A stretch of DNA of 62,639 nt, the filler included, from an uncultured Gemmatimonadota bacterium (GTDB taxonomy: Bacteria > GCA-2686955): NCBI GenBank assembly GCA_964490075.1. It is 4 parts of 4 records of this genome, joined end to end, with 100 filler letters (N's around TTAATTAATTAA, not from the genome) between each part and the next. Parts side by side here need not be neighbours in the genome. Positions count along the whole stretch, not along the records: positions 47,791 to 62,639 come from CAZBBK010000093.1; 3 more parts are not named here. One strand, 5' to 3'. A model generated the notes under the pieces. The model was not told the DNA's origin, did no database searches, and was given only the letters and a program-made list of their open reading frames with translations. How positions within the stretch are numbered: position 1 is the stretch's first letter; every line of letters begins with the position of its first letter. Made by a program: the position numbers and the translations under genes. Positions 9,924-53,417 of the stretch are shown here, in pieces.

Positions 9924-10209
9924 GTGGCGGCAGACCGCGGCCCCGGTTCCTCAGAAATCTGTCAGCACCAGCGACGCCCCTTCTCGATCCCGTCGGATCG
10001 ACATACGGCGTTTCCTCGCGGGCTCGCCGGGCTATTCGCCCAACCCCCTGCGTGACAGTCGGCTCCATATCGCGTGCCGGCGCGGTACGCAATTTGCGTC
10101 TCGGGTCCATCGAGCACAGGGCGGCATCTTGCGAATGGTTGCAGCAATCGCACCTCGCTGCGCCCCGGATCACCCGCGGGGATGTGGTCAATGAACGGAG
10201 AGGCTCGTC

Positions 10210-11306
10210 ATGAAACTCACTGCAGTCCAACTCGCCGCCGCGGGGGCCATCGGCATAGCGATTGGAGCATCGCGGGCACGCCCAGGGAGGCCGATTCCCT
10301 CCCGGCCCGCCGCTCCGCGCGGCCTCGATACCGCGGGCGCGTTCGTCGCCACCGGGCGCCCGGCGCCGGGCGCCGACCACGATCCCCCGAACGTGATACT
10401 GCTGATGGTCGATGACTACGATCTGGAGTCCTGGCGCAGCCTGCAGACCCGGCCCCGGCCGCTCACACTGGTTTCCTGAAGTGGGGCGGTAACGACGAGA
10501 CGAGCCGCTTCCGTGCCCTGGTCCGGCCTCCGCGGCGCTACCTGGATCTGCTCGAGAACGATCCTTTCCCGCTGCCTGAATCGCCGTCCTACAACGTGGC
10601 CGATGTATCGGACAAGCCCTGGTTCGTGCGGAATCCGGCGATAACTTCGCAGGAGGAGTCCAATCTGATCGTACAGTTCAACTCCAGGCAGGGTGCGCTG
10701 CTAGCGGTCGACGACCTGGTGGGACGGGTGGTCGAGACACTCGAGAGCCTCGATGAGCTGGACAACACTGTCATCGTCTTCACATCCGACCACGGTTACT
10801 TCCTGGGCCAGCACCGGCTCTCGCTCAAGGGCTACGCTTACGAAGAAGCGGCGCGGATTCCGCTGCATATCCCCTACCCGGGGCAGGCGGCGGAGAACGT
10901 AGAGCAGCTGGTTCTGAACACCGATCTGGCTCCCACCATCCTGGCCATGGCGGCGATGCCGGCGAATCGATCGATGGATGAGCGGTCGCTGCTGCCATTG
11001 ATCGAAGGAGTGGATCCGCCGGTCTGGCGCAAGCTCTTCTTGATGGAGTTGACCTGGTACCAGCCGGCCGGCTAACACCATGCCCTGCGGCTGCTGGATC
11101 CCGGTGGACAAGATCGTCTGTTCACGGACTACTTCCGGTCCGGTGGCGCATACCAGACAACGGAGTTCTACGATCTTCTATGGGACCCCTATCAGGAGCA
11201 GAACAGCTAAGAACGACTCGACCCCGCAACGGCCAGCGCCTATCGCGCGTGGCTGGACGCGGCCAAGGTCTGCAACGGCGCGGGCTGTCGTGATCTGGAG
11301 GAGTGA
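10210..11306 (+). pseudogene. Disrupted exported sulfatase (N-acetylglucosamine-6-sulfatase-like)
   Basis: Signal peptide plus PPNVILLMVDD, frame change at about 10446 with the CxPxR region missing; second frame carries DVSDKP, AVDDLVG, FTSDHGYFLGQH, EFYDL..DPY and has two in-frame TAA (11073, 11208). Confidence 0.85.
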
Positions 11307-11307
11307 G

Positions 11308-12313
11308 ATGTCCGTCGAGACATCGAAACCGATCGCGTTCCACCTCATGGCCAAGCCGAGCGGACCCGCGTGCAATCTCGAGTGCCAGTACTGTTTCTAC
11401 CTGGCCAAAGAGGGCATGCTACGCTCGGTCGCGGGATGGAGGATGCCGGATGCGGTCCTGGATCGTTATGTTCGGAGCTACATCCAGAGTCAGGAGGTGC
11501 CGGTCATCTCCTTCACCTGGCAGGGCGGCGAGCCGACCCGGCAGCGCTGCACGATCGCTTTCGGGCAGATCGGGGGGGCGGGGCGACGCACGCGCGAGTC
11601 TTGCGCGGCATCGAGTGTCTGCTCCGGCACTCGGTGGAGTTCAATACGTTGACCGTGCTGAACGTCGCGACCGGGGCTGCTCCGCGCGATGTGTATCGAC
11701 ACCTGGTCGACGTGGGATCCCGATGGATGCAGTTCATTCCCGCGGTGGAGCGATGCTCCGACAGCTCCCACGCTGGTCGGTCGTCGATGAAGGGCGGGGC
11801 GGAAGTCACGCCGTGGAGCATTCGACCCGAACAGTGGGGGGAGTTCCTGATCGGCGTCTTCGACGAGTGGCGCGGTCGCGACGTTGGTAGGGTCTTCGTG
11901 CAGCTCTTCGAGGCCCTGCTCGCCATGCGTGCTGGGCTGCCGGCCGGTCTATGCGTGCTGTCCAAGACCTGCGGCAAGGCTCTTGCCGTGGAGCGCGACG
12001 GGGCGGTGTACTCCTGCGATCAGTTCGTCGATCGATCTCATCGTCTCGGCAACCTGCTCCACGAAGAGCTCGGGGACATGGTGATGTCGCAGAGGCAGAG
12101 AGCATTCGGCGAGGAGAAGTGGCGGGGTTTGCCGAGTTGCTGCCGTCGCTGCGAGTTCCTCTCCCGGTGCTACGGTGAGTGCCCGCGGCACCGCTTCCTG
12201 CGCAGTGCCGACGGAGAGCCGGGGTTGAGTTGTCTCTGCTGCGAAGGTCACCGGGCGTTGTTCGCCGACAGCGAGCCCCACTTCGAAACGATGTGGCAGC
12301 TGCTCCGGCTCGG
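11308..12313 (+). pseudogene. Disrupted anaerobic sulfatase maturase (anSME/ChuR, radical SAM-SPASM)
   Basis: AKPSGPACNLECQYCFY, WQGGEPT, then deletion and frameshift at about 11535-11538; SPASM Cys motifs (C..TCG, VYSCD, CRRC..C.GECP) in the second frame; C-terminus lost. Confidence 0.9.
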
Positions 12314-12434
12314 TAATAGTGGGGAAGTCGTATCCATCCCCATGTCCAACGGTGATCGTGGCTGCCTGGGCCGGGCCGAGAGAAGCAAGAGCAAGAGCAG
12401 CGAGAAGTGCGACACAGGTAGGCATTCGCCTCAT
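12310..12434 (-). pseudogene. N-terminal remnant of a secreted (beta-helix-type) protein
   Basis: Clean signal peptide MRRMPTCVALLAALALASLGPAQA|ATITVGHGDGYDFPTI, after which the frame runs into the antisense of the anSME gene. Confidence 0.6.
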
Positions 12435-12766
12435 CGGACAACCTCGAGTGGAGAACCTGGAATGCGTCTGTCCGAGCCATCCTGGCGCGGCGGCTCATCA
12501 TGATGGACGAGATTACTCTATCGCGGAATCGGTCGGATATCAACGGCAGGGGGACAGCACGGTCCGAGCTTGCTGCGAAGCGGATTCGGCCCGGCCGGTG
12601 CGTCGCGTTGTTTCTATGTAAGAGATTCCGACACGGAGCGCTGCCGAATGTCGCCGATTCCGACGGCTTGCCCGCGAGCAGCGTTGATTTCCCGTCTTTT
12701 GCCGCGGCACGCCACTTGCGCTGGTCCAGGAAGGCATCTCGACACCAACGACCTCGGAGTCCCGTC

Positions 12767-16144: not shown

Positions 16145-16244
16145 NNNNNNNNNNNNNNNNNNNNNNNNNNNNNNNNNNNNNNNNNNNNTTAATTAATTAA
16201 NNNNNNNNNNNNNNNNNNNNNNNNNNNNNNNNNNNNNNNNNNNN
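16145..16244. other. Artificial contig linker
   Basis: N run with central TTAATTAATTAA (stops in all six frames). Confidence 0.98.
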
Positions 16245-32177: not shown

Positions 32178-32277
32178 NNNNNNNNNNNNNNNNNNNNNNN
32201 NNNNNNNNNNNNNNNNNNNNNTTAATTAATTAANNNNNNNNNNNNNNNNNNNNNNNNNNNNNNNNNNNNNNNNNNNN
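32178..32277. other. Artificial contig linker
   Basis: N run with TTAATTAATTAA. Confidence 0.98.

Positions 32278-35793: not shown

Positions 35794-35797
<4 letters not shown>
35769..35797 (-). promoter_or_regulatory. Sigma70 promoter of the str operon, overlapping the rpoC stop
   Basis: TTGACA-N17-TAGCAT. Confidence 0.75.
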
Positions 35798-40017
<4,220 letters not shown>

Positions 40018-40100
40018 TTGGATTCCTCCATCGGCGGCCCGTGCTGGGCCGGGCGGGAGTTCGGTCCCGAGCCGTGCCGCGCCGTGGGCGCTGGCGCGAG

Positions 40101-43100
40101 TCAGGACCGGCCGTTCTTCGACAGGAGCTGGACGTCGAGGCCCAGGGACTGGAGCTCTTTCACCAACACGTTGAAGGACTCGGGAATCCCCGGCTCGGGA
40201 GGATTCACGCCCTTCACGATCGCCTCGTAGATCTTGGAGCGGCCGCCGACGTCGTCGGACTTCACGGTGAGCAGCTCCTGGAGCGCGTAGGCGGCCCCAT
40301 AGGCTTCCAGAGCCCACACCTCCATCTCGCCGAAACGCTGGCCGCCGAACTGAGCCTTGCCGCCCAGCGGTTGCTGGGTCACCAGCGAGTAGGGACCAAT
40401 CGAGCGGGCGTGGATCTTGTCGTCGACCAGGTGCGAGAGCTTGAGCATGTAGATATAGCCGACCGTGATCTTCTCGTCGAAAGGCTCGCCGCTCTGCCCG
40501 TCGTAGAGCAGCGTGCGCCCATCGACCGGCAGTCCCGCGGCCTCGAGAGCCTCCTTGATGTCGGCCTCGCTCGGCCCATCGAAGACCGGGCAGGCCACCT
40601 TGACGCCCAGCTCGCGCGCGGCCCATCCGAAGTGGGTCTCGAGGATCTGCCCCAGGTTCATCCGCGAGGGCACGCCGAGCGGATTGAGCACGATGTCGAT
40701 CGGCGTGCCGTCGGCCATGTGGGGCATGTCCTCGATCGGCACGATCTTGGAGACCACACCCTTGTTGCCGTGGCGGCCGGCCATCTTGTCGCCCACCGAG
40801 AGGATCCGTTTGCGGGCCACGTAGACCTTGACCAGCTTGACGATGCCCGGCGGCAGCTCGTCGCCCAGGTTGGCCTTCTCGATCTCTCGCTCGAGCCGAT
40901 CATCGAGGCTCTCGAGCTTCTTGCGATAGAGCCTGCCGATCACCGCGACCTGGTGATTGATCTCGTCGCTGCCGACCAGCTGGGCATCGAGCACCAGGGT
41001 GTCGAAATCGACCGCCTTGAGCACCTCGCGACCCAGCTTCTTGCCGCGCGGAACCACGCGCCGCCCGGTGCGCGCGTCTTGCAGGTCTTGGGCGACCCGG
41101 CGATTGAGCAGCTTGATGATCTGCTCGTCGCGGATGCTGCGAATCGCCGCCACCCGCTCGTCGTGCTGCTCCTTCAAAGCGGCCACCCGGCGCCCGATCT
41201 CGCGTTTCACCCGCTCGTCGCGCTCGCGCCGCGAGAACACTCGCACGTCGACCACGGTGCCGTTCATTCCGGTGGGGGCCTTGAGCGACGCATCGCGCAC
41301 GTCGCCGGCCTTCTCGCCGAAGATGGCGCGCAAGAGACGCTCTTCCGGGGTCAGCTCGGTCTCACCCTTCGGCGTCACCTTCCCCACCAGGATGTCGCCC
41401 GGCTGGACATCGGCCCCGGTCACGATGATGCCGTCGTCGTCGAGATTGCGCACCGCTTCGTCCGAGACGTTGGGGATCTCGCGGGTGATCTCTTCCTGGC
41501 CACGCTTGGTGTCGCGTACCTGCAGCTCCATCTCGACGATGTGGATCGAGGTGAAGACATCCTCGCGGACCACTCTCTCGCTGACCACGATCGCGTCTTC
41601 GAAGTTGAAGCCGTTCCAGGGCATGAACGCGACCAGCAGGTTCTTGCCCAGCGCCAGCTCCCCGTTGTCGATCGCCTGGCCGTCGGCGATCACGTCGCCA
41701 GGCTTCACCAGGTCGCCGGGAACGACCCGCGGCCGCTCGTTGATGCAGGTATCCTGGTTCGACTTGCGGAACTTCTTCAGGCGGTACTTGTCGCGCGTGC
41801 TCCAGTTGAAGATCTCGTTCTCCGGCACCGGTTCCCGCTCGTCGATCTCGATCACGATCCGATCGGCGTCGGCCTGAACCACCGTGCCGCCGCGCTGAGC
41901 AATCAACACACTTCCGGAATCGACCGCGACTTTTCGCTCCATTCCCGTGCCCACCAGCGGCGCTTCGGTGGTCATCAGCGGCACCGCCTGGCGTTGCATG
42001 TTGGAGCCCATCAGCGCCCGGTTGGCATCGTCATGTTCCAGGAAGGGGATCAACGCGGCCGCTACCGACACGATTTGGATCGGCGCCACGTCCATGTAGT
42101 CGACCTGGTCCACCGGAGCAACGACGTACTCGCCGCGGCGCCGGGTGCGCACCAAGGGATTGCTGAAGCGGCCGTCGGCCTCCAGGGGCGCGTTGGCCTG
42201 AGCGATGGTATAGAGATCCTCTTTGTCGGCCGACAGATGCTCGATCTCGTCGGTGACGACACCGTCCGCCACCTTGCGATAGGGCGTCTCGAGAAACCCG
42301 AAGCTGTTGACTCGCGTGTAGGTACACAGCGAGGTGATGAGGCCGATATTGGGGCCTTCCGGGGTCTCGATGGTGCACATTCGACCGTAATGGGTGTGGT
42401 GCACGTCGCGCACCTCGATCCCGGCCCGATCGCGCGTCAAACCGCCGGGTCCGAGCGCCGAGAGCCGGCGCTTGTTGGTCAGCTCGCCGAGCGGATTCAC
42501 CTGGTCCATGAACTGCGAGAGCTGGCTCGAGCCGAAGAATGTCGACACCACCGAAGAGATCGTGCGCGCGTTGATCAAGTCGTAGGGCGTGATGGTGTCG
42601 GAATCCTGCAGCGCCATCCGCTCGCGGATGGTGCGCGCCATGCGCGACAGTCCGGTCGAGAGCTGCTGCGCCAAGAGCTCGCCCACCGAGCGGATCCGGC
42701 GGTTGCCCAGGTGATCGATATCGTCGATATTGCCTTCCCCGCCGCGCAGCCGCAGCAGGTAACGGATAATGGCGATCAAGTCCTCGTTGCAGAGGACCGT
42801 CTGCTCCTCGGGAACGTCGAGCGCCAAGCGGGTGTTGATCCGATGGCGTCCGACCTCTCCCAGGTGGTAACGCTTGGGATTGAAGAACAGCCGCTCCAGC
42901 AGCGCGCGCGCGGTCTCCACGCTGGCCTGATCGCCCGGTCGCAGAATGTTGTAGATCTTGATCAGCGCTTCCGACTCGTCCTCGCACGGGTCCTTGCCCA
43001 AGGTGTTCTTGAGAACCTCGAGGTCCCCCGGCGAGTCGGTGTTGAGAATCGAAACCGTCTCCACCCCGGCGTCGCGGATCAGCTTGATGGCGTCGCGGGT

Positions 43101-43901
43101 GATCGTCTCGCCCTGCTCGATCAGGATCTCGCCGGTATTGGTATCGACCACCGCATCGGTGGTGATGCGGCCGTGGAACTCCTCGTCCGGAGCTTCGCTT
43201 ACCCGCACCTCTTCGAACTCACTGAACAAGCGCAAAACGTCGTCGTCGGTCGAGTAGCCGAGCGCCCGCAGCAGAACCGTCACCGGGATCTTGCGCTTGC
43301 GGTCGATGTGTACATACATCACATCGCGCGCGTCGAGGCTGAACTCGACCCAGGAGCCGCGATTGGGAATGATCCGCCCGGAAAAGAGCCGCTTGCCGTT
43401 GGCGTGAATCTCGTCGCCGAAGTAGACACCGGGGGAACGGTGCAGCTGGCAAACGATCACCCGCTCGGCACCGTTGATGATGAAGGTGCCCTTGTCGGTG
43501 ATCAGCGGCAGCTCGCCGAGGTAGACCTCTTGCTGAATGATGTCCTTGACCCGCTTCTGGTCGTCGACGGCCTCGCGCACGATCAGCCGCAGCGCCGCCT
43601 TCAGCGGCACCGCGTAGGTCATATCGCGATCCTGGCACTCGCGGATCGAGTACTTCGGCTCGCCGACCGAGTAGCCGAGAAACTCCAAAGTGAAGTTGGC
43701 GTGCGGGTCGGAGATCGGAAAGATGTCGTTGAAGACCGCCTGCAGGCCGATGCTCTCCCTGTCCTCGGGAGCCAGATCGCGCTGAAGGAAGTCGCCGTAG
43801 CTCGAGAGCTGGATCTCGAGCAGATTCGGCATCTCGAGGATCGGCTCGATCCGCGAGTAGTCGCGGCGGCCGGTGGTCGAATCGATCTTGTAGCGTGCCA
43901 A
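40101..43901 (-). CDS. rpoB: RNA polymerase beta subunit
   Basis: [42 protein letters not shown] start with GAGGGGG RBS. Confidence 0.99.
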
Positions 43902-44114
43902 GGCATCCCCCTCAGTGGGAGAGAATCGAGCAGTATACACCGCATAGCGAAAGGCCGGCGAGCGAAAGGTCGCCCGCCGCGGAGTCGGTCGCCACGGGCC
44001 ACGCCGGCCGACCCGGAGACGGCACGCGCCGAAACGCGCGCGGCCGCCGGCCGATTGCGGCGCTCGGGTCGGGGAATCGCCGACCCGGCATCGGGGCAGA
44101 TCGGAGGGTCCGGA

Positions 44115-44507
44115 TCACTTGATCTCGACGCCCGCGCCGACCTCCTCGAGCTTGCCCTTGATCTCGTCGGCCTCGTCCTTGGAGACCGCCTCTTTCACCG
44201 GCTTCGGCGCGTTGTCGACCAGCTCCTTGGCCTCTTTCAGCCCGAGACCGGTGATCGCGCGCACCTCTTTGATGACCTGGATCTTCTTCTGGCCGGCCGC
44301 GGTCAGCACGACGTCGAACTCGGTCTGTTCCTCCGCCGCCGCGCCGTCGCCTTCACCGGCACCCATTGCGGCCATCGGAACCCCCGCCATCGGCACCGCG
44401 GCGCTCACCCCGAACTTCTCCTCGAAGTCCTTGATCAGGTCCGCCAGCTCCAGTGCGGGCATCTCCGCGATCGCGTCGATGATTTGGTCTTTGGTCAGCG
44501 TAGCCAT
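44115..44507 (-). CDS. rplL: 50S ribosomal protein L7/L12
   Basis: [34 protein letters not shown]. Confidence 0.99.
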
Positions 44508-44616
44508 CGTATTCAACTCCTTGATTCCCTGCCCACGCGTGCCTCCGAACGGGACCGCGAGGGCCTTCTGGGACGGTTTCGGCGCCAAGCGCGCCGCACG
44601 ATCCGACCGGTGTCGG

Positions 44617-45144
44617 TCAAGACTCTTTTTGCTCTTTGATCTGGGTCAGCACGGTCGCGAAGCCGCTCAGCACCGCCTGCAGCGCACCGGCGAAGCCGGT
44701 GAGCGGTGCCGAAAGCGCACCCGCCAGCTGCGCCAGGAGCTGCTCCCGACTCGGCAGCCTGGCGATCCGCAGAACTTCGTCGTGGTTGACGAAGCGGCCC
44801 GAAACCACCGCTCCCTTGATGACCGGCAGCTCCTTCGCGTGCTTCTTGCTGAAGTCGGTCAAGACCCTCGCCGGCGCCACCGCGTCGCTGCGGCCGAAGG
44901 CCACGGCGGTGGGTCCCACGAAGAGCTCAGAGATGTCCTCGTTGACTCCCGCCTCGCTCGCGGCTCTGCGCGCCAGGGTGTTCTTGACCACCCGGTACTC
45001 GACGTCGGCCTCTCTGAGCAGGCGCCGCAGGGCGGTGGTATCGGCGACGTTCAAGCCGGTGAAATCCGCCAGGTAGGCGTTGTCGTGGGTCCTGAACTTC
45101 TCAGCGAGCTCAGCGACCGCTTGTGCTTTCTCTGGGCGTGCCAT
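44617..45144 (-). CDS. rplJ: 50S ribosomal protein L10
   Basis: [26 protein letters not shown]. Confidence 0.97.
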
Positions 45145-45182
45145 CGGTGCTCCGATGCCAGGCTCTCGGGGGAACCCCGAGC

Positions 45183-45884
45183 TCACTTGGCGAGGTTGAG
45201 AATCTCTTGGGTGTCGAGGCGGACGCCAGGACCCATGGTCGAGGCCAGGGTCGCCGAACGAAGATAGGTCCCCTTCACCGATGAAGGACGAGCCCGCGCC
45301 AGCTCGCGCAGGAAGGTCAGCGCGTTCTCGCGCAGCTGATCCTCGCCGAAGGAGATCTTGCCGATCGGCACGTTGACGTTCGAGCCCCGGTCGACGCGGT
45401 ACTCGATCTTGCCCGCCTTGAAGTCGCCGACCGCCTTCGCGACGTCGGTGGTGACCGTGCCGACCTTGGGGTTCGGCATCAGGCCGCGGGGACCGAGGAC
45501 CCGGCCCAGGCGCCCCACCTTCGGCATCATGTCGGGAGTGGCGATCGCGGCATCGAACTCCAGCCAGCCGTCCTGGATCTTCTTCACCAGGTCGTCGTCG
45601 CCGACATGGTCGGCGCCCGCGTCGAGCGCCTCCTGGGCCTTTTCCGCCACCGCGAACACCAGCACCCGCACCGACTTCCCGGTGCCGTGCGGGAGCACCA
45701 CCGTGCCCCGAACTTGCTGGTCGGCGTGGCGCGGGTTGACTCCCAGGTGGGTGCAGACTTCGACCGTCTCGTCGAACTTGGCGAACGCCAGGGACTTCAC
45801 CAGGCCGATGGCGTCGGCGAGGGGGTAAGGGCTCAGCGCATCGACACGGCCGACCGCGTCGCGATAGTGCTTGCCGTGCTTCAT
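45183..45884 (-). CDS. rplA: 50S ribosomal protein L1
   Basis: KFDETVE, DQQVRG...[26 protein letters not shown]. Confidence 0.99.
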
Positions 45885-46315
45885 CCGCTCTCCCCCTTCG
45901 ACAAGATCCCCATGCTGCGGGCGGTGCCCTGGATCATCGCCACCGCCGCGTCCATGTCGTTGGCGTTCAGGTCCTCCCACTTCAGCTTCGCGATCTCCTC
46001 GCACTGGGCACGGGAGATGGTCCCGACCTTGGTGCGGTTCGGTTCCGGCGAGGCCTTGGCCAGCCCCACGGCACGCTTGATCAGGATCGCGGCCGGCGGA
46101 CTCTTGGTGATGAACGAGAACGAGCGGTCGGCATGGATGCTGATGACCACCGGGATCACCAGTCCTTGCTGCTGCTGGGTCTTGGCGTTGAACGTCTTGC
46201 AGAACTCCATGATGTTGACCCCGTGCTGTCCCAACGCGGGACCGACCGGGGGCGCGGGTGTGGCGCCTCCGGCGGGGATCTGGAGCTTGATCTGCCCGAC
46301 GACCTTCTTGGCCAT
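45881..46315 (-). CDS. rplK: 50S ribosomal protein L11
   Basis: [32 protein letters not shown]. Confidence 0.99.
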
Positions 46316-46407
46316 CTGTGGCTCCTATCGTTTCCGGTGCAAGCGGCCCGAAGGCCTCCCGGTTCTGTGAATCCTGCGCCCCACCGCGCAATGCGCGGCG
46401 TGAGGGC

Positions 46408-46980
46408 TCAGGCGATGCTCTTGACCTGCCGGTAGTCCAGCTCGACCGGCGTGGGGCGGCCGAAGATCGACACCAGCACCTTGACCTTCATGCGCTCGTG
46501 GTTCACCTCTTCGATCACCCCCTGGAATTCGGTGAAGGGACCGTCGATGACGATCACGCTCTCGCTCTTGCGGAAGGGAACCGACACCCGGGCGCGCTCG
46601 GTCTCGCTCTCGATGCGGTGCAGAATGCGGTCGACCTCGTGCCGGGGCACCGGGCGCGCCTTGCCCCCCTGGCCGACGAAGTCGGTGACGCCCGGCGTGT
46701 TCTTCACCATGCGTTGGGTGTCGGGAGTCAGCCGCAGCTCGATCATGATGTAGCTGGGAAAGAGCTTGCGCTGGGTGGTGCGTTTCAGCTCCACCACCTC
46801 TTCGGTGGGGATCAGCACCCGGCCGATGTCGCCATCGAGCCCCTGCAGGCGCGCCTCGCTCTCGATCAGGGTCTTGACCTTGCTCTCGTGCCCCGAGTAC
46901 GTGTGCACGACGTACCAGGCGAAAGGCCGCTCGGTGGGCTCTTCCTCGTGCTCGGTCGTGTTCAGTTGATCGGGCTCCAC
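46408..46980 (-). CDS. nusG: Transcription termination/antitermination factor NusG
   Basis: WYVVHTYSGHE.KV, TPGVT.FVG, KOW (DGPF..F.G), VSIFGR.TPVEL. Confidence 0.97.
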   Translation of the reverse strand: MEPDQLNTTEHEEEPTERPFAWYVVHTYSGHESKVKTLIESEARLQGLDGDIGRVLIPTEEVVELKRTTQRKLFPSYIMIELRLTPDTQRMVKNTPGVTDFVGQGGKARPVPRHEVDRILHRIESETERARVSVPFRKSESVIVIDGPFTEFQGVIEEVNHERMKVKVLVSIFGRPTPVELDYRQVKSIA

Positions 46981-47047
46981 GGGTCTCTCCCTCGGGATGA
47001 TGCGGGGCGCCTTCGCGCCCGGCTCCGGTCGTTCGGCCGCCGCTTCC

Positions 47048-47245
47048 TCAGGCGCCCAGCAGACCGTGCAAGGCGTTCATGATCGACGAGAGCGCGATGT
47101 CGACTCCGCCGATGAAGATGGTCAGGATGAAGGTGACCACGAAGACCAGAACGGTCTGGCCGCGAAGCTCTTCCGGCTTCGGCCAGGTCACTTTCTGCAT
47201 CTCGGCGGTGACGTCCTCGATGTACCTCTTCGCGTTGTCGATCAC
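47048..47245 (-). CDS. secE: Preprotein translocase subunit SecE
   Basis: EM.KVTWP...EL plus one TM; between tRNA-Trp and nusG. Confidence 0.93.
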   Translation of the reverse strand: MIDNAKRYIEDVTAEMQKVTWPKPEELRGQTVLVFVVTFILTIFIGGVDIALSSIMNALHGLLGA

Positions 47246-47311
47246 GACCGCTGTTCCGTTTTGCGGCGGCCCGCCGGACACCGGATGAGGCGTCCGGCGG
47301 GGCCGGTGTGC

Positions 47312-47388
47312 TGGCAGGCCAGGAGGGACTCGAACCCCCAGCCCCCGGTTTTGGAGACCGGTGCTCTGCCAAATTGAGCTACTGGCCT
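47312..47388 (-). tRNA. tRNA-Trp (CCA)
   Basis: AGGCCAG acceptor stem, anticodon loop CTCCAAA, GGTTCGAGTCC T-arm, encoded CCA end. Confidence 0.97.
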
Positions 47389-47425
47389 GGGTTTTCTGGA
47401 GCGCGCCTGGTTCGCTGGCGCGAGC

Positions 47426-47584
47426 TCAGCGCGTCTCCTTGTGGATGGTGTGGCTGCCGCACCAGCGGCAGTAGTGCCGGTGCTGCAGACGATCGGGATG
47501 GTTCTTCTTGTTCTTCGTGGTCGTGTAGTTGCGCCGCTTGCACTCGCTACAGGCCAGAATCACCTTGGTGCGTGCCGATGCCAA
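47426..47584 (-). CDS. rpmG: 50S ribosomal protein L33 (zinc-binding C+ type)
   Basis: [52 protein letters not shown]; below the ORF-track size cutoff. Confidence 0.95.
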
Positions 47585-47635
47585 GGAATCTATCTCCCGC
47601 GTGGGGTGGGAGGCGCCGCTCCCCGCCCCGCGCTG

Positions 47636-47690
47636 CTACTCGTGGATCTCGGTGATCACGCCGGCGCCGACCGTGCGCCCGCCTTCGCGG
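47636..47690 (-). CDS. tuf: Elongation factor Tu, 3' fragment (second tuf copy)
   Basis: REGGRTVGAGVITEIHE*. Confidence 0.95.
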
Positions 47691-47790
47691 NNNNNNNNNN
47701 NNNNNNNNNNNNNNNNNNNNNNNNNNNNNNNNNNTTAATTAATTAANNNNNNNNNNNNNNNNNNNNNNNNNNNNNNNNNNNNNNNNNNNN
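47691..47790. other. Artificial contig linker
   Basis: N run with TTAATTAATTAA. Confidence 0.98.
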
Positions 47791-47930
47791 CACGAGCGCT
47801 TCGCGCCCCTCGATGCGGCCGAGGCGCGGCGCCGCGGCGGCCTGCACCAGACCCTGGAGCGTCCTGTGCACGTGGCCCCGGGGACCCAAGAAGCGGCGAT
47901 CGCCCATGTGGAGCTGCTCGTGGAGCGGTC

Positions 47931-48132
47931 GTAACTCGCGACTCCGATCGAGGAGCTGAGGGTTGCGGCCAGATTCTGGTCACAACTCGCGACTCTCGAT
48001 CGAGAGTCGCGAGTTACGGCGCGAATACGGTCGTGGCTCCGGTTTCATCGCGATGAGTGACGAGTTGTGACGGATATACGGTCGTAGCTCCGCACTCTCG
48101 ATCGAGAGTGGCGAGTTGTGTCGCGAAACGGC
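47931..48132. repeat. Degenerate 51-bp-period palindromic repeat array
   Basis: AACTCGCGACTC at 47933 and 47984; CGAGTT at 48010, 48061 and 48112; perfect 32-bp palindrome 47984-48015. Confidence 0.8.
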
Positions 48133-48899
48133 GTCATGACTCGCGGTTCCGGGCGCGGAGCTGGGCTTTGTGTCGGGGCAGCGCGCGGGGATCGTGGAGC
48201 CTCGCGTGGGCTGGATGGAAAGAGGGCGCGCACCCCGTGGATGGGGCCTCTGGCCGTCCCATCCGGCGGGAGCCCCGCGGCGCGGCGCCGGGTCGGTCGT
48301 GTAGGCGGAGGCCCTTTCGGCGAAAGGGACTACGGGGCTGCAACAGATGCCGCGGTTGCCCGAGCAGGTAGGCATGCTCTCGAGCATTCCATCTGTCCAG
48401 CCGCCGGTGCCGTGCCACCGCCCGCGACCTGCCCCACCGCCCGAAGACCATCCCCCTCTAGAAGGCGTCCGGGGTCACAGCCCCGGAGTTTTTCGTTGCC
48501 TGATGGTGAGGAGTCCCTGCCCGACTCCGTTGTCCGAATCGGGCATGGGCAGGGGCATGGGCACGCGAAGAGGTCCAGTCGAGACCGCCCCCCCGGGCCG
48601 CGCATGGAGCCCCGTTGGCCGGCGGACTCCCGCTGGGCCCGCGCTTCTTCGCGAAGGGCGTCGCTCGAGAAGCGCTATATCGAAACGCCAGGTGGCCTCT
48701 TCGACCGAACCCGCGGCGCCGGCACCCGGGATCCTCGGGCAGAAGCTCGGCGGTCATTTCGCACGTCTGAGCCACCTCAGACGGCCACTTGGACCTCTCA
48801 GCGGTCGATTCGGGCTCTTGACCAGCCTCAGGCGGCGGTTGGGGTCGCTTCTTTGTCAGTCTTGGCGCCTGAATCGGCTCAGAAGCCGGTCGTGGTCGC

Positions 48900-50635
48900 T
48901 CATGGGTCGTTCTTCGCGCCCGAGTCCCCCTCCTCAACACCGCCCCAGAGCATCTCCAGGAGCCGTTGGGCGGCCTCGATCCGCGCCTCCTTCTTGGTGC
49001 TGCCCGAGCAGGGTTCGGTCTCGATTCTCCGTCCCCGCTCCTCCGCCCAACCGACCACGACGAATCTGGGCGAGTGAGAGGGGCCCTCGCTGGCGAGCAG
49101 ATCGAATCCGTGCGCGCCGATCTCACGGCGCCGCTGCATCTGGTTCAGACGCGGCCGGGGATCGGGGCGCGGGCGCGGCAGAGCATCTGGAGGGGCGGGG
49201 GATGCGGCGCTCGGTGAATCCTCCGGCTCGCTCCGCAACGCCTCGAGCCGCTCCAGCAGCTCAGCCGCCGCGGCCTGCTCGGCGCTCTTGCGGGCCGGCG
49301 CGCGATAGAGATTGGATTCGATCGCCCCCCGTCCGCCCAGGGCCACCGCGCCGCGTAGCCCAGCGGCAGCACGTCGACCTCGAAATGGGGCTCTCTGAGC
49401 TTCCGCTTCGCGCAGAGCTCGAAGAGGGCGGTCTTCGGGTTGCCCCTCTTCAGCTCCGCGAGCCGCTCCTCGCTCAGCTCGATCGCCGCGGATCGATCGG
49501 CACCGCCCCCGCTCAAACGCAGGAGCAGCTCCTCTGCCGCCATCTGCTCGGCCAGGCGGTGGCTCGACTCGGCCGTGGCGCTCACGTCGATCGGGTCGCC
49601 GCCGACGCTCGCCGATACCTGCACGACGAAACGATGGCGCTCGTCGCGGGAGCGCTCGAAACGGGGCGGCTCGAGCCCACGGCGCTGACAGTAGGTCGTC
49701 AGGGCGCCCTTCGGGTTCGCGTCCGTGAGCCGCCTCGCCAGCGCTTCCTCTTCCTCGCCGGCCGGCGCGTGCTTCACTTCGGACCAGATCATTCCGCGCC
49801 GATGATCGTCTCTGCGAGCGAGACCGCGGCGCTCCAGCTCGTCGACGAACACCGGCACGTCGGGCAGTCGGCCCTCCAGCCGGGCGCGCTGCAGGATGAG
49901 CAGAACCTCCTGGGCTCGGCCGATGGCGAAGGCGGGGATCAGCACCCGGCCGCCCCCCTCGAGCACGGCACCCACGCTGCCCAAGAGGCGCTCCTCGGCA
50001 GCCTGGCGATCGGAGTGCATCCGGTCGCCGTAGGTGCTCTCGGTGACCAGGATGTCGACCGGCAGCCGCGGCGGTGCGAGCGCGGGCACGCTGCGCTGCG
50101 CGCTGACGCTGTAGTCGCCGGTGAAGAGCAGATGGCCGCCGGGGGTCTCGAAGTGGATCATCGAGGCGCCGAGGATATGAGAGGCCGGCAGCCAGGTGGC
50201 GCGCAGCGTGCCGATCTCGACCGACGAGCCGTGGTGCACCGGCCGGATCGCCGCCAAGAGCGCTTCGACCTGTCTCTCCGCGTAGAGCGGAATCTCGCCT
50301 TCGGCCGCCTCGCCGGCTGCCATGATGCGCAACGCGTCCCGTTGCAGAATCGCCACCAGGTCGGCCGTGGGCGGCGTCGTGTAGATCGGCGCGTCGGGGA
50401 ACGCCTCGTGCAACAGCGGCAGAGCACCGCTGTGGTCGGAATGGGCGTGGGTGAGGACCACGGCGTCGATCCGCCGGCCGCTCAGCATGTCCAGGTCGGG
50501 CAGGTTGCGCTCCGCGCGAAAGCGGACTCCGCAGTCAACGACCACCGCGGTGCCGGCGACCTCGAGCAGCGCGCACGACGCACCGATGCCCCCGGCGCCG
50601 CCGAGGAAGCTCAGCTCGATGGGTGGGTGAGACAT
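48900..50635 (-). pseudogene. Beta-CASP-family MBL-fold nuclease domain fused to three dsRNA-binding domains (frameshift near 49345-49325; beta-CASP/RMMBL part absent)
   Basis: FLGGAGGIGASC, DCG, THAHSDHSG, HILG, TGDY, ESTYG, IPAFAIGRAQE; then NPK..L..YCQ, NPK..L.ELC and GPSHSPRF...GSTKKEA dsRBD signatures. Confidence 0.75.
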
Positions 50636-51107
50636 TCTGGTGCCAGGATGTCCGAGGAGGAGGTCGGTCGGCCGCGGTGCGCCGGTTTCATCGCGACGAT
50701 GATAGAAGACCCAGGCGTGGCGCCGAGGTCGACTCGGCGCGTGCTCGGAGCAGAGTGCCACCTCAATCGCTTGCTACAAGGGATGTGAGATCACATCTGT
50801 CGAGACCCTCGAGACCTTCGGGCTTCGCGAGTCGGGCAGGGGCATGGACATGGGCACGATTCGTCATGATCCGGTCGCTCGCTGCGTAGAGACCCGCCAT
50901 ATCGGAACCTCAGCGACGAATCGCCCCCTTGTGACACCAAAATCCGCCCCTTACTCTCTTCTCATACGTCGCACCTCGCCCCCCCCGCGTGCCGGAGCGG
51001 CGCGGATCGGGCAATCGAGCGCGGGGCGGGGAAGCGCCTGTGAACCTGCGAAAGGGAAGCTCGGCAAAGCGAAACGAGCGCATGCTCTCACGCACGGGGA
51101 TGATCTC

Positions 51108-52160
51108 ATGAACGATCTCGAGGGAAGCCGCGCCCTGGTGCTCGGCGGCGCCGGCTTCATCGGCTCCGCCGTGGTCCGCCGGCTGCGGGCCGCGCGCACG
51201 GAAGTGGTGGTATTCGACAACTTCCTGCACGGGCGGCGCGCCCATCTCGCCGGCCTCGGGGAAGGCGTTCGCGTGGTCGAAGGGGATCTGCGCGATCTTC
51301 CGGCGCTGCACGAGACCCTGTCGGATGCGCGCCCCGACTTCGTCCTCAACTGCTCCGGGGACACCTATGTGCCCTCGGCCTACGAGCTCCCCGAGCGCTT
51401 CCTCTCGATCAATGCCCTGGGCACCCTGCACGCTCTGCAGGCGGTGAAGGCTCGGGGAGTCGCGCGCATGGTCCAGCTGTCGTCCGCGGAGGTCTACGGG
51501 CGTGCCGGGGCGCAGCCGCTCTCCGAGGATGCTGCGCTACGCCCGGTGAACACCTACGCCGTCACCAAGCTCGCCGCCGACTGTCTCTGCTCGACCTTCT
51601 TCGTCGAGCACAGCGCTCCGGTGGTCGTCGCCAGGATCTTCAACGCCTACGGTCCGCGCGAGACCCACCCCTACGTGGTGCCCGAGATCATCACCCAGCT
51701 GCGCCGCGGGACGAGCGCCGTGGAGCTCGGCAACATCGCCGCCACCCGAGATCTGACCTACGTCGACGACACGGCCCGCGCGGTGGTGGCGCTGCTCGCC
51801 AGCGACGTACCGCAGGGCGCGGTGGTCAACGTCGGATCGAACAACGCTCACAGCATCGAAGCGCTGGTCGGCATGATCGCGGAGCTGGCAGGTGTGCCGG
51901 AGGTGCGGATTCGACAGGATCCGCGCCGCCTGCGCGCGAGGGATATCGACGCCTTCCGCTGCGACAACTCCCGGCTCCGAGAGCTGACCGGGTGGGCGCC
52001 GGAGATCGACATCCACACCGGCCTGAAGAAGACCCTCGAATGGTACGACGAGCACGGCGGCCGTTGGTGCTGGGAGGACGACTCGGCCGACGTGCGGGCC
52101 TGGAGCGCGCCCGGGGCCGAGGGGCAGACACGGAGCGAGTTGCTCGATCAGACCGGCTGA
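51108..52160 (+). CDS. NAD-dependent nucleotide-sugar epimerase/dehydratase
   Basis: GGAGFIG, SSAEVYG, YAVTK, RIFNAYGP, RDLTYV.D. Confidence 0.95.
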   Translation: MNDLEGSRALVLGGAGFIGSAVVRRLRAARTEVVVFDNFLHGRRAHLAGLGEGVRVVEGDLRDLPALHETLSDARPDFVLNCSGDTYVPSAYELPERFLSINALGTLHALQAVKARGVARMVQLSSAEVYGRAGAQPLSEDAALRPVNTYAVTKLAADCLCSTFFVEHSAPVVVARIFNAYGPRETHPYVVPEIITQLRRGTSAVELGNIAATRDLTYVDDTARAVVALLASDVPQGAVVNVGSNNAHSIEALVGMIAELAGVPEVRIRQDPRRLRARDIDAFRCDNSRLRELTGWAPEIDIHTGLKKTLEWYDEHGGRWCWEDDSADVRAWSAPGAEGQTRSELLDQTG

Positions 52161-52166
52161 GCTGCG

Positions 52167-53417
52167 ATGACGATCCGAATCGCGTTCCCGATCCACATGC
52201 AGCCCTGGGGGACCGCCACCCACGGGATCGGACGCTACATGGCCGACCTGGCGCAAGCGGTCCACCGCTTCGGCGCGGACCACGATGTCGCGCTGTCGGT
52301 CTTCCAGGATTCGTACCGTGCGTTTCACGGCTTTGAAGGGCTGCCGATTCGTCGCTTCCCATCACTGCCCGACCGGCTGCGCATCCCCTCCCACACGACC
52401 GAGCGCAAGGTCGCGGCCTCGGCGCGAGAGCGCCTGACCTGGGGGGACGACGACTCTCCATCGCTCTCCCATCGCCTGATGAACCGCGTCCGCGACCGGC
52501 GCCGCGAGCGCTTTCTGGAACGAAGCGACATTTCGTTGGTGCACTACGGATTCCACCTGGGAAGACCGCTTTCGCCGCGCAACGCCCCCCTGGTCGTCAC
52601 CATGCACGACCTGGTGCCGCATCTGCTGCCGGAGACCACCACAGCCGACGTGGCCTTCGGGTGGCGCACCATTCTGCGTCACCTGAAATCGGTCGACCAT
52701 TTCATCGCCATCAGCCGCACCACCGCGGCCGACCTGGAACGCTGTCTCGGAATCCCCAAGGAACGGATTACCACCAGCTACCTGGGCGTCGACCCGAAAT
52801 TCCGACCTCTGGCGGACCCGGTCACGACCAAGGCGACGCTGGCCCGCGAGTACGGCATCGCCTCTCCCTACGTTCTGCACGTGAGCGCCGTAGAGCCGCG
52901 CAAGAACCAGATCATGATCGCGAAGGCGCTCTGCGAGCTGCCGAGCGAAGTGCAGTACGTGATCGTCGGCGGCGCGGGATGGCGTTCGCAAGCCCTGCAC
53001 CAGACGATCCGGGACTTCGATCTGCAGCGCCGGGTCATCTTCACCGGCTTCGTGCCGGACGAGCATCTGCCGCTGCTCTACGGCTGCGCCGCGGTGTTCG
53101 TCTACCCCTCCCTCTACGAAGGCTTCGGATTTCCGATCCTGGAGGCGATGTCGTGCGCCTGTCCGGTGCTGAGCTCCAACCGCGGCAGCCTGCCGGAGGT
53201 ATGCGGCGATGCGGCGTGGATGCTTCCGCCCGACGATCGCAAGGCCTGGGTGGAAGCGTTGCGGCGAGTGATCTATCACCAAGAAGACCGCGAGCCGCTG
53301 GTGAAGCGTGGGCTCGACTGGGTGCAGCGCTACACCTGGAAGCGTTGCGCCGAGGAGACCATGGAGACCTACCGACAGGTCGTGGAGCGCTGGCGCAGCG
53401 AGCGGGGTCGATCTTGA
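52167..53417 (+). CDS. GT4 glycosyltransferase (WbaZ/MtfB-like)
   Basis: TMHDL, EPRKN, FVYPSLYEGFGFPILEAM. Confidence 0.93.
   Translation: MTIRIAFPIHMQPWGTATHGIGRYMADLAQAVHRFGADHDVALSVFQDSYRAFHGFEGLPIRRFPSLPDRLRIPSHTTERKVAASARERLTWGDDDSPSLSHRLMNRVRDRRRERFLERSDISLVHYGFHLGRPLSPRNAPLVVTMHDLVPHLLPETTTADVAFGWRTILRHLKSVDHFIAISRTTAADLERCLGIPKERITTSYLGVDPKFRPLADPVTTKATLAREYGIASPYVLHVSAVEPRKNQIMIAKALCELPSEVQYVIVGGAGWRSQALHQTIRDFDLQRRVIFTGFVPDEHLPLLYGCAAVFVYPSLYEGFGFPILEAMSCACPVLSSNRGSLPEVCGDAAWMLPPDDRKAWVEALRRVIYHQEDREPLVKRGLDWVQRYTWKRCAEETMETYRQVVERWRSERGRS

Follow-up and report, generated by a model that had tools for sequence, protein, structure and literature searches.

Is the minus-strand gene at positions 48900-50635 of the DNA considered here a working nuclease, and to which family does it belong? 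The window, that is, the whole stretch analyzed (62,639 nucleotides, filler included), comes from an uncultured Gemmatimonadota bacterium (GenBank assembly GCA_964490075.1). From 50635 down to 48900, its minus strand encodes the 265 N-terminal residues of a beta-CASP nuclease of the CPSF73/aCPSF1 type, followed by three double-stranded RNA-binding domain (dsRBD) modules. We conclude that this gene is very probably a pseudogene of a dsRBD-tailed family of beta-CASP ribonucleases, and that the locus is better annotated as such than as a 496-aa 'MBL fold metallo-hydrolase' (MBL, metallo-beta-lactamase).

Layout of the Remnant Gene

The gene (48900-50635) starts with an ATG at 50635, ends with a stop codon at 48902-48900, and is read in two frames. 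Open reading frame (ORF) A, which gives the 496-aa protein P0001, extends from the ATG to 49145, and ORF B, which gives the 148-aa protein P0002, occupies the second frame from 49346 to the final stop. In alignments, the remnant is colinear with full-length relatives apart from one deletion and one frameshift. The nuclease part, an MBL/beta-CASP segment of 265 residues (49841-50635, minus strand), was recognized by Pfam, by NCBIfam, and by its identity to the best relative, P0003. Pfam places Lactamase_B at residues 17-181 of P0001 (E = 1.6e-15) and finds neither Beta-Casp nor RMMBL in the remnant. Similarly, residues 5-265 align with positions 174-439 of the NCBIfam aCPSF1 model (631 positions, E = 1.9e-58), and residues 7-266 with positions 2-258 of the type VII Cas14 model (612 positions, E = 1.2e-54). 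Motifs 1-4 and A are kept (D34, H63xHxDH68, H153, D174, E199), while motifs B and C are absent, the segment that carries them having been deleted. Judged by these sequence matches, the core belongs to the CPSF73-like beta-CASP clade, of which the ancestor of the remnant was a member; the local copy is only what is left of it.

The next piece, ELERRGLARRDDHRRGMIW (49784-49840), matches, in alignment, the RRDD...LW block, almost unchanged among nine full-length relatives; from this alignment and AlphaFold2 models of relatives, it is what remains of a winged-helix domain, namely helix 3 and the wing. It is followed by dsRBD module 1 (49511-49720, residues ~306-375 of ORF A), for which Pfam dsrm matches residues 308-374 of P0001 with 29.0 bits (cut-off 23 bits) and DND1_DSRM scores 29.1 bits against a cut-off of 25.7. 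Module 2 is split by the frameshift and for this reason cannot be scored as a single piece. Its N-terminal half, NPKTALFELCAK...LGYAAR (49346-49441), lies in the frame of ORF A and its C-terminal half, ALGGRGAIESNLYRAPARKSAEQAAAAELLERL (49242-49343), in that of ORF B; the two halves are colinear with the second dsRBD of the nine full-length relatives. Module 3 (48936-49163) has a canonical GPxH loop and KKxA helix start, matches Pfam dsrm at residues 67-133 of P0002 (31.3 bits, same cut-off), and aligns with the C-terminal part of the NCBIfam RNase III model (E = 7.4e-6). Together, the C-terminal half of module 2 and module 3 are 46% identical to residues 603-720 of relative P0004. The GPxH and KKxA motifs suggest that module 3 binds double-stranded RNA (dsRNA). 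Modules 1 and 2, which are less canonical, keep the NPKG...E helix and the K-x-AEQ-AA helix.

The original prediction, made from the DNA alone, had read this locus as an MBL nuclease fused to three dsRBDs, in what was probably a damaged copy of a longer gene. All the motif strings on which it drew are present on the minus strand: DCG (50536-50528), HAHSDH (50449-50432), HILG (50179-50168), TGD (50122-50114), ESTYG (50041-50027), PAFAIGRAQE (49936-49907), PVFVD (49855-49841), NPKGALTTYCQ (49717-49685), NPKTALFELCAK (49441-49406), DPRPRLNQ (49163-49140), EGPSHSPRF (49088-49062), and GSTKKEARIEAA (49004 onward). The domain composition is borne out by the Pfam scores for the MBL part and for modules 1 and 3, which like the aCPSF1 match far exceed chance, and by alignment for module 2.

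Two Lesions Reproduced in Other Samples

The first lesion is a deletion, whose junction lies inside TTCGTCGAC (Phe-Val-Asp, TTC GTC GAC; 49841-49849, minus strand) according to BLASTP segments and alignments A2 and A5. Residues 6-265 of P0001 correspond to residues 7-267 of P0003 (61% identity), and residues 263-427 to residues 503-669 (40% identity). The deletion keeps the reading frame; ~235 residues are missing relative to P0003 and ~240 relative to the 838-aa relative P0122 (alignment A2). Beta-Casp has thereby lost most of its length, RMMBL is gone along with its motif B and C histidines, and of the winged-helix domain helices 1 and 2, two thirds of it, are missing. The jump after PVFVD that had been noted in the original prediction is indeed an in-frame deletion, but it leads to the winged-helix remnant and not directly into the dsRBD region. 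In relatives P0006 and P0007, Phe-Val-Asp stands at both borders of the missing segment (PVFVDGMVR, RFVDAL), which makes a deletion between short direct repeats plausible. Thus, slippage or microhomology between two Phe-Val-Asp codon triplets may plausibly have caused the loss of ~0.7 kb.

The second lesion is the predicted frameshift, located by frame arithmetic and both translations at 49343-49351 (minus strand), where the sequence is one base short of a continuous reading (-1/+2). The frame switches between ...LGYAAR, which ends at 49346, and ALGGRGAIES, which starts at 49343; in the alignments, this site falls within the first strand region of the second dsRBD. The out-of-frame tail of ORF A (WPWADGGRS..., 49145-49345, minus strand, stop 49147-49145) was rejected as real coding sequence, as it has no counterpart in any relative. 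No third lesion was found in the alignment with relatives: the start, the C-terminus, and the order of the remaining blocks all agree with them.

Four runs of one marine-metagenome study carry this stretch; X1 may be where the window comes from, and contigs of three further samples (X2, X3, and X4) were compared with the window. The X2 contig (49212-50800) spans both lesions. In X3, one contig (49268-49531) spans the frameshift and another (49642-49973) the deletion junction, which is also spanned by the X4 contig (49590-50178). All of these comparisons gave 0 differences and 0 gaps. In addition, the exact 496-aa product, including its out-of-frame tail, is recorded from five contigs. Since contigs of three further samples bridge the lesions without differences, the lesions are not an assembly artifact. 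These contigs, together with the colinear BLASTP segments, uphold the view that the locus is a damaged copy of a longer gene.

Two other readings of the local copy have to be set against this evidence. The window is a metagenome record of low depth (3-10x), and the deletion and frameshift could in principle be assembly or chimera artifacts of a single metagenome assembly; given that contigs of three other samples reproduce the lesion junctions exactly, we find this barely conceivable. It is also very unlikely, if somewhat less so, that the shortened gene still works, for example as a non-catalytic dsRNA-binding protein, or that the frameshift stems from a sequencing error or is overcome by programmed frameshifting. 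The deletion does keep the frame, dsRBD1 and dsRBD3 are each intact, and the ORF has a high GC content at third codon positions (GC3, 0.86), like its neighboring genes. However, the high GC3 tells only that decay is recent, and the recurrence of the frameshift, without differences, in contigs of two further samples speaks against a sequencing error. The frameshift splits dsRBD2 and detaches the canonical dsRBD3, and the deletion interrupts the MBL fold as well as the winged helix, which makes it unlikely that the N-terminal half folds. Moreover, the shortened layout occurs in no other protein among the matches listed. The gene is best seen as a pseudogene whose death, as the high GC3 indicates, is recent.

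An Intact Family of dsRBD-Tailed Nucleases

The ancestor implied by the remnant has living relatives. Word-index searches retrieved full-length proteins of 705-746 aa and 800-852 aa, and precomputed Pfam lists for full-length relatives contain Lactamase_B, Beta-Casp, RMMBL, and dsrm. Beta-Casp and RMMBL were both found in all eight relatives scanned, and relative P0125 has three dsrm stretches. The concern that the fusion might be a chance junction of neighboring genes is answered by the presence of these four domains in one ORF in many genomes; an intact beta-CASP, winged-helix, and dsRBD family is real. Some relatives already bear the JGI label 'Cft2 family RNA processing exonuclease/dsRNA-specific ribonuclease', and the family is thus visible in automatic annotation, yet uncharacterized. 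In keeping with the original prediction, which knew of no characterized bacterial beta-CASP-dsRBD fusion, no description of such a protein was found in a full-text literature search (supplements outside its scope). No such fusion is mentioned in the available portions of PMC8501993, nor in those of a phylogenomic study of archaeal beta-CASP proteins (PMC3553952), whose supplementary figures hold bacterial-related clusters that might bear on the naming of the clade considered here.

The distribution of the family was scanned with an 817-aa relative (P0123) as the query and one genome per species. Among the 80 loci kept, ten match the query over residues ~1-810 and the other 70 match the core only. 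The ten full-length loci belong to Candidatus Entotheonella palauensis, two Planctomycetota, a Pirellulaceae, a Gemmatimonadota, a 'Deltaproteobacteria' metagenome-assembled genome (MAG), a Myxococcota, a Chitinispirillaceae, a Fibrobacteres MAG, and an unclassified bacterium. When an 808-position family profile was run against a representative library of 1.84 billion proteins, 15 of the best 150 matches covered it end to end in one stretch, and seven more of these 150 covered it in two stretches. A profile of the tail (A5, winged helix and dsRBDs only) was applied to three phylum samples at a threshold of E <= 1e-10. It detected the tail in 14 of 201 genomes of Fibrobacterota, the phylum of the Fibrobacteres MAG (L009). 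In the phylum of the Myxococcota locus it detected 3 of 301 genomes and in that of a Planctomycetota locus 1 of 301, which is the centre genome itself; in these two high-GC samples only six first-look candidates were scored per genome, so that both tallies may be undercounts. A region-restricted word search with the tail of P0004 returned eight proteins, but this index misses many members and prevalence was taken from the other scans.

The Fibrobacterota copies are well preserved: all ten loci of this clade that were cut out have open frames of ~810-870 codons. One Fibrobacterota genome (G394) has two full family copies (C8:56210-57265 and C97:20505-21560). One Planctomycetota copy (L010:10001-12465) is divided between two ORFs that overlap (10001-11650 and 11587-12465) and is either a second decayed copy or the product of an indel error in a long-read assembly. 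A larger sister group (proteins P0153-P0272) consists of bacterial beta-CASP proteins of 750-1400 aa that share the core and part of the winged-helix region and have different tails; the six examined have no Pfam domain beyond the catalytic core, which makes this another uncharacterized architecture.

Predicted Fold of Intact Members

Ten catalytic residues are invariant in all 15 aligned members: D; H-H-D-H; H; D; E; H; H (motifs 1-4, A, B, and C). Members with all seven catalytic motifs are 715-870 aa long. The forms of 715-746 aa have either a winged helix and two dsRBDs or three dsRBDs and no winged helix, and those of 800-870 aa have a winged helix and three dsRBDs, as in the ancestor of the remnant.

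An AlphaFold2 model of P0123 (817 aa, 15-row alignment) reached a mean predicted local distance difference test (pLDDT) score of 83.4. In this model, the core extends to about residue 448 and is followed by a domain of three helices and a hairpin (H466-473, H483-491, H497-509, E513-515, E522-525; H, helix; E, strand). Three modules follow: dsRBD 1 (H551-561/E568-574/E577-586/E589-598/H601-624), dsRBD 2 (H641-652/E658-664/E667-676/E679-683/H692-711), and dsRBD 3 (H741-750/E754-765/E772-781/E786-794/H797-816), with disordered linkers at 530-535, 618-623, and 714-738. The C-terminal modules of the family are thus predicted to fold as alpha-beta-beta-beta-alpha units, three of them in P0123. Two objections had been named along with the original prediction, namely that these modules do not fold as dsRBDs and that no other genome encodes MBL and dsRBDs in one ORF; because single-ORF members are intact and the model contains the dsRBD folds, both fall.

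The domain between core and dsRBDs was also modeled alone (pLDDT 85.1). In a fold search, its top matches were all winged helices (NtcA/CRP, MarR, cullin WHB, DAI Z-beta, SelB WH), none of them at E <= 0.001, and the model is best described as winged-helix-like, without a family assignment. The RRDD...LW block is its best conserved part and is the piece that survives in the window. As for the core of P0123, the best fold matches are aCPSF1 (3af5, E = 1.8e-37), FttA, CPSF3/CPSF73, Ysh1, INTS11, TTHA0252, and Cas14, and a sequence-profile ranking of solved structures agrees with this order. The tail of the family profile matches the dsRBDs of ADAR1, Loquacious, TRBP, ILF3, ADAR2, and Staufen. 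An ESM Atlas look-up with the last 363 residues of P0123 gave no usable match.

Relationship to Known Nucleases

Intact members share with aCPSF1/FttA, CPSF73 (CPSF3), Ysh1, and INTS11 the MBL, beta-CASP, and RMMBL core with all seven motifs. The aCPSF1/CPSF73 group provides the best sequence matches of the family among solved structures (2xr1 at 2e-91, then 3af5, 2ycb, 6q55, and 9bct), and 3af5 is also its best fold match, with a root-mean-square deviation of 2.5 A over 476 columns. However, aCPSF1 has two N-terminal KH domains, which the family lacks, and CPSF73 and INTS11 carry C-terminal domains for partner subunits, where the family has a winged helix and two or three dsRBDs instead. The window copy, unlike this group, lacks motifs B and C.

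Another counterpart is TTHA0252 of Thermus thermophilus (431 aa), a stand-alone CPSF73-like RNase from a bacterium that falls in the same beta-CASP clade (profile E = 1.5e-63; fold TM-score 0.88-0.89 on target). Unlike the family, TTHA0252 consists of the catalytic core and carries no appendage for RNA binding. It is chiefly as such bare cores that the CPSF73-like nucleases of bacteria are known. The beta-CASP core of type VII Cas14 is likewise homologous to that of the family (PDB 8yhd at 3.9e-74). However, Cas14 is guided by a CRISPR RNA complex, whereas the family tail consists of dsRBDs. No CRISPR-like tandem array was found in the window and no neighbor is conserved; cas7 and cas5 were not specifically searched for.

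The dsRBD fold is common to the family and to RNase III, ADAR, TRBP/Loquacious, and Staufen, and module 3 has the GPxH and KKxA motifs. The family lacks the catalytic domain of RNase III, and by analogy with beta-CASP enzymes its chemistry would be directed at single-stranded RNA, in contrast to the dsRNA-cutting RNase III. A precedent for a bacterial nuclease domain other than RNase III in a protein with a dsRBD is offered by the 'two-headed RNases' of cyanobacteria, HEPN-RNase III-dsRBD proteins for which Anantharaman et al. (2013; PMC3710099) predict RNA duplexes as the target. As described there, these differ from the family in that the nuclease fold is HEPN and a single dsRBD accompanies the RNase III domain.

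Several established identities were tried for the remnant and rejected. The aCPSF1 model (TIGR03675) gives 198.2 bits against a cut-off of 580.2, over profile positions 174-439 only and with no KH region, and the Cas14 model (NF045584) gives 185.7 bits against 800. The RNase III model (TIGR02191) is matched only at positions 146-219, its dsRBD (18.9 and 25.6 bits, cut-off 166.25), and the RNase J model (TIGR00649) only by the N-terminal 90 residues (52.2 bits, cut-off 400). With the ligase-associated DNA exonuclease model, the score is only 58.8 bits (cut-off 325).

Proposed Role and Alternatives

What did the intact enzyme do? Enzymes of the CPSF73 type act on single-stranded RNA both as endonucleases and as 5'-3' exonucleases, and the ssRNA-cutting step of the mechanism proposed here is drawn from this property. 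The ancestor of the remnant would have been a protein of ~800 aa with a CPSF73/aCPSF1-type MBL, beta-CASP, and RMMBL core, a small winged helix, and three dsRBDs. In intact relatives, the dsRBDs, above all the canonical third, would hold the enzyme on an A-form RNA duplex together with the winged helix, and the two-metal beta-CASP site would cut single-stranded RNA adjoining the duplex or trim it 5'->3'. Stem-flanked precursor RNAs or sense/antisense pairs are the likely substrates, and the enzyme may serve as an accessory factor in RNA processing or decay alongside RNase III. In the window, the in-frame deletion of ~0.7 kb has taken the beta-CASP lid, the last MBL strands, the motif B histidine, and the zinc-ligand histidine of motif C, and a one-base deletion has broken dsRBD2. 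For the explanation as a whole, a pseudogene of a stand-alone ~800-aa RNase whose intact relatives act as duplex-tethered RNases, we estimate a probability of about 0.7. For the narrower proposal that the intact family is a duplex-tethered RNase acting on cellular RNA, the chances seem about even; dsRNA binding and RNA cleavage are here suggested by the domains. If correct, the attachment of a winged helix and two or three dsRBDs to a CPSF73-like core, in a conserved family, suggests how an RNase that cuts single strands may be directed to structured or paired RNA. To our knowledge, dsRBDs outside RNase III have been little studied in bacteria.

RNase III itself scored above the curated cut-off in all five family-carrying host genomes tested. 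The idea that the family replaces RNase III was therefore rejected, and it is to be regarded as an addition. Along with the mostly metabolic flanking genes and the lack of a conserved neighbor (see below), this speaks for a housekeeping type of setting.

A number of points weigh against this explanation. In modules 1 and 2 no GPxH loop is clearly present, and they may make protein contacts instead of binding RNA; moreover, the partner of some dsRBDs and winged helices is an RNA:DNA hybrid or DNA. With a frequency of ~0.3-7% in the genomes sampled, the family is rare and patchy, a pattern that would suit an accessory or conflict-related gene no less than a housekeeping one. An SNF2 helicase with DUF3670 (L008:6196-8865), ~1 kb upstream of the Chitinispirillaceae copy, matches ZorD/DpdE in PADLOC (1.9e-125), and one neighbor at the L003 locus is a transposase. 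With regard to the lesions, all four runs come from one study at a depth of ~3-10x, and a minority intact allele is possible. DNA of a close pre-deletion orthologue was not found in the metagenome contigs, which yielded only three distant loci (24-61% identity, short pieces), and the microhomology origin of the deletion relies on protein-level Phe-Val-Asp repeats in relatives.

The original prediction had named antiviral defense, beside structured-RNA processing, among the possible roles. An immune nuclease directed against phages or mobile elements would use its dsRBDs to sense viral dsRNA (replication intermediates, convergent transcripts) and so switch on or direct the beta-CASP RNase, and the window lineage would have lost it, a common fate of defense genes. 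Such turnover fits a family that is patchy and rare across at least five phyla, with decay in the window and a split copy at L010, and the core is as close to type VII CRISPR Cas14 as to CPSF73. This idea, which we consider unlikely, gains no support from the analyses made. No conserved neighbor gene was found among the window and the ten full-length loci, and at the ten Fibrobacterota loci the only recurring neighbor is a P-type ATPase (4/10). Twenty flanking genes were scanned with Pfam, and 16 of them had matches: DDE transposase, subtilase, PPDK-like kinase, glutamate dehydrogenase, DUF7309/DUF6930, DJ-1, BNR protein, OprB porin, glutamine synthetase, small GTPase, SNF2 helicase, ferritin, GNAT, P-type ATPase, MFS transporter, and sulfatase; four had none. 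The SNF2 helicase is the only defense-like gene among them, and the other 19 are metabolic, housekeeping, or unknown. None of four family proteins (P0123, P0001, and the products of two intact genes, L007:10001-12418 with 805 aa and L009:10010-12451 with 813 aa) matched any of the 5027 models of PADLOC-DB 2.0 (E <= 0.001). A tblastn search with P0123 against 50,697 phage and 72,556 plasmid records gave no match over 80% or more of the query; those that appeared were confined to the core and lay below 60% identity. Finally, one Fibrobacterota clade is uniformly intact at ~810-870 aa, which looks like vertical retention.

With similar doubt, we view the more specific proposal that intact members are a bacterial counterpart of the eukaryotic dsRNA-directed nucleases, in which the triple-dsRBD array and winged helix would position a CPSF73-type cutter, so that long dsRNA (replication intermediates of phages, or antisense pairs) is sensed and the attached RNA destroyed. 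The patchy distribution and the decay of the gene in some lineages are compatible with it. If true, immunity or silencing would here be served by a stand-alone enzyme that dsRNA triggers and that lies outside the RNase III/Dicer lineage. Slightly less likely again is an activity on RNA:DNA hybrids or DNA (R-loop or primer removal, repair), as in the SNM1/Artemis branch, with the winged helix and dsRBDs binding hybrid or duplex DNA. Beta-CASP proteins include DNA nucleases and some dsRBDs tolerate hybrids, and the nearest folds of the linker domain are DNA-binding winged helices (NtcA/CRP, MarR), albeit none at the threshold given above. However, the RMMBL segment, to which Pfam ascribes 'RNA specificity', is present in all eight relatives scanned, the top matches by sequence as well as by fold are RNA enzymes without exception, and the DNA exonuclease model falls far below its cut-off; the dsRNA-contact motifs of module 3 are canonical. 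A duplex-tethered RNase thus remains the reading that we prefer for the intact family.

Genomic Setting of the Remnant

On one side, the remnant is flanked by an epimerase/glycosyltransferase pair (50844-53417, plus strand), named from its translations. On the other side lies an rpmG - tRNA-Trp - rpoBC cluster, all on the minus strand: rpmG (47426-47584, named from its translation), tRNA-Trp (47312-47388), rpoB (40101-43940, from the Pfam domains of its matches), and rpoC (35794-40626, from position and size only). The secE, nusG, and rpl genes between are assumed, also from position and size only. RpoB shares only 63-64% identity with named proteins of Latescibacteria, Eisenbacteria, Zixibacteria, and Gemmatimonadota, but 82-88% with five that are unnamed; going by these identities, the host belongs to an uncultured lineage, sparsely sampled so far, within that general (FCB) group.

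Between rpmG and the stop codon of the remnant, ~1.3 kb (47585-48899) contain no convincing gene, and an Rfam search of 44000-53000 returned only tRNA-Trp, with no family in this gap. Within the gap lie a 51-nt tandem repeat (2.8 copies, 72% matches) at 47992-48131 and two stretches of 44 N. The latter form one of three pairs of 44-base N runs in the window (16145-16244, 32178-32277, and 47691-47790), with 12 bases between the runs of a pair and ~16 kb between pairs; they are presumably masked sequence, and ORFs that cross them read X.

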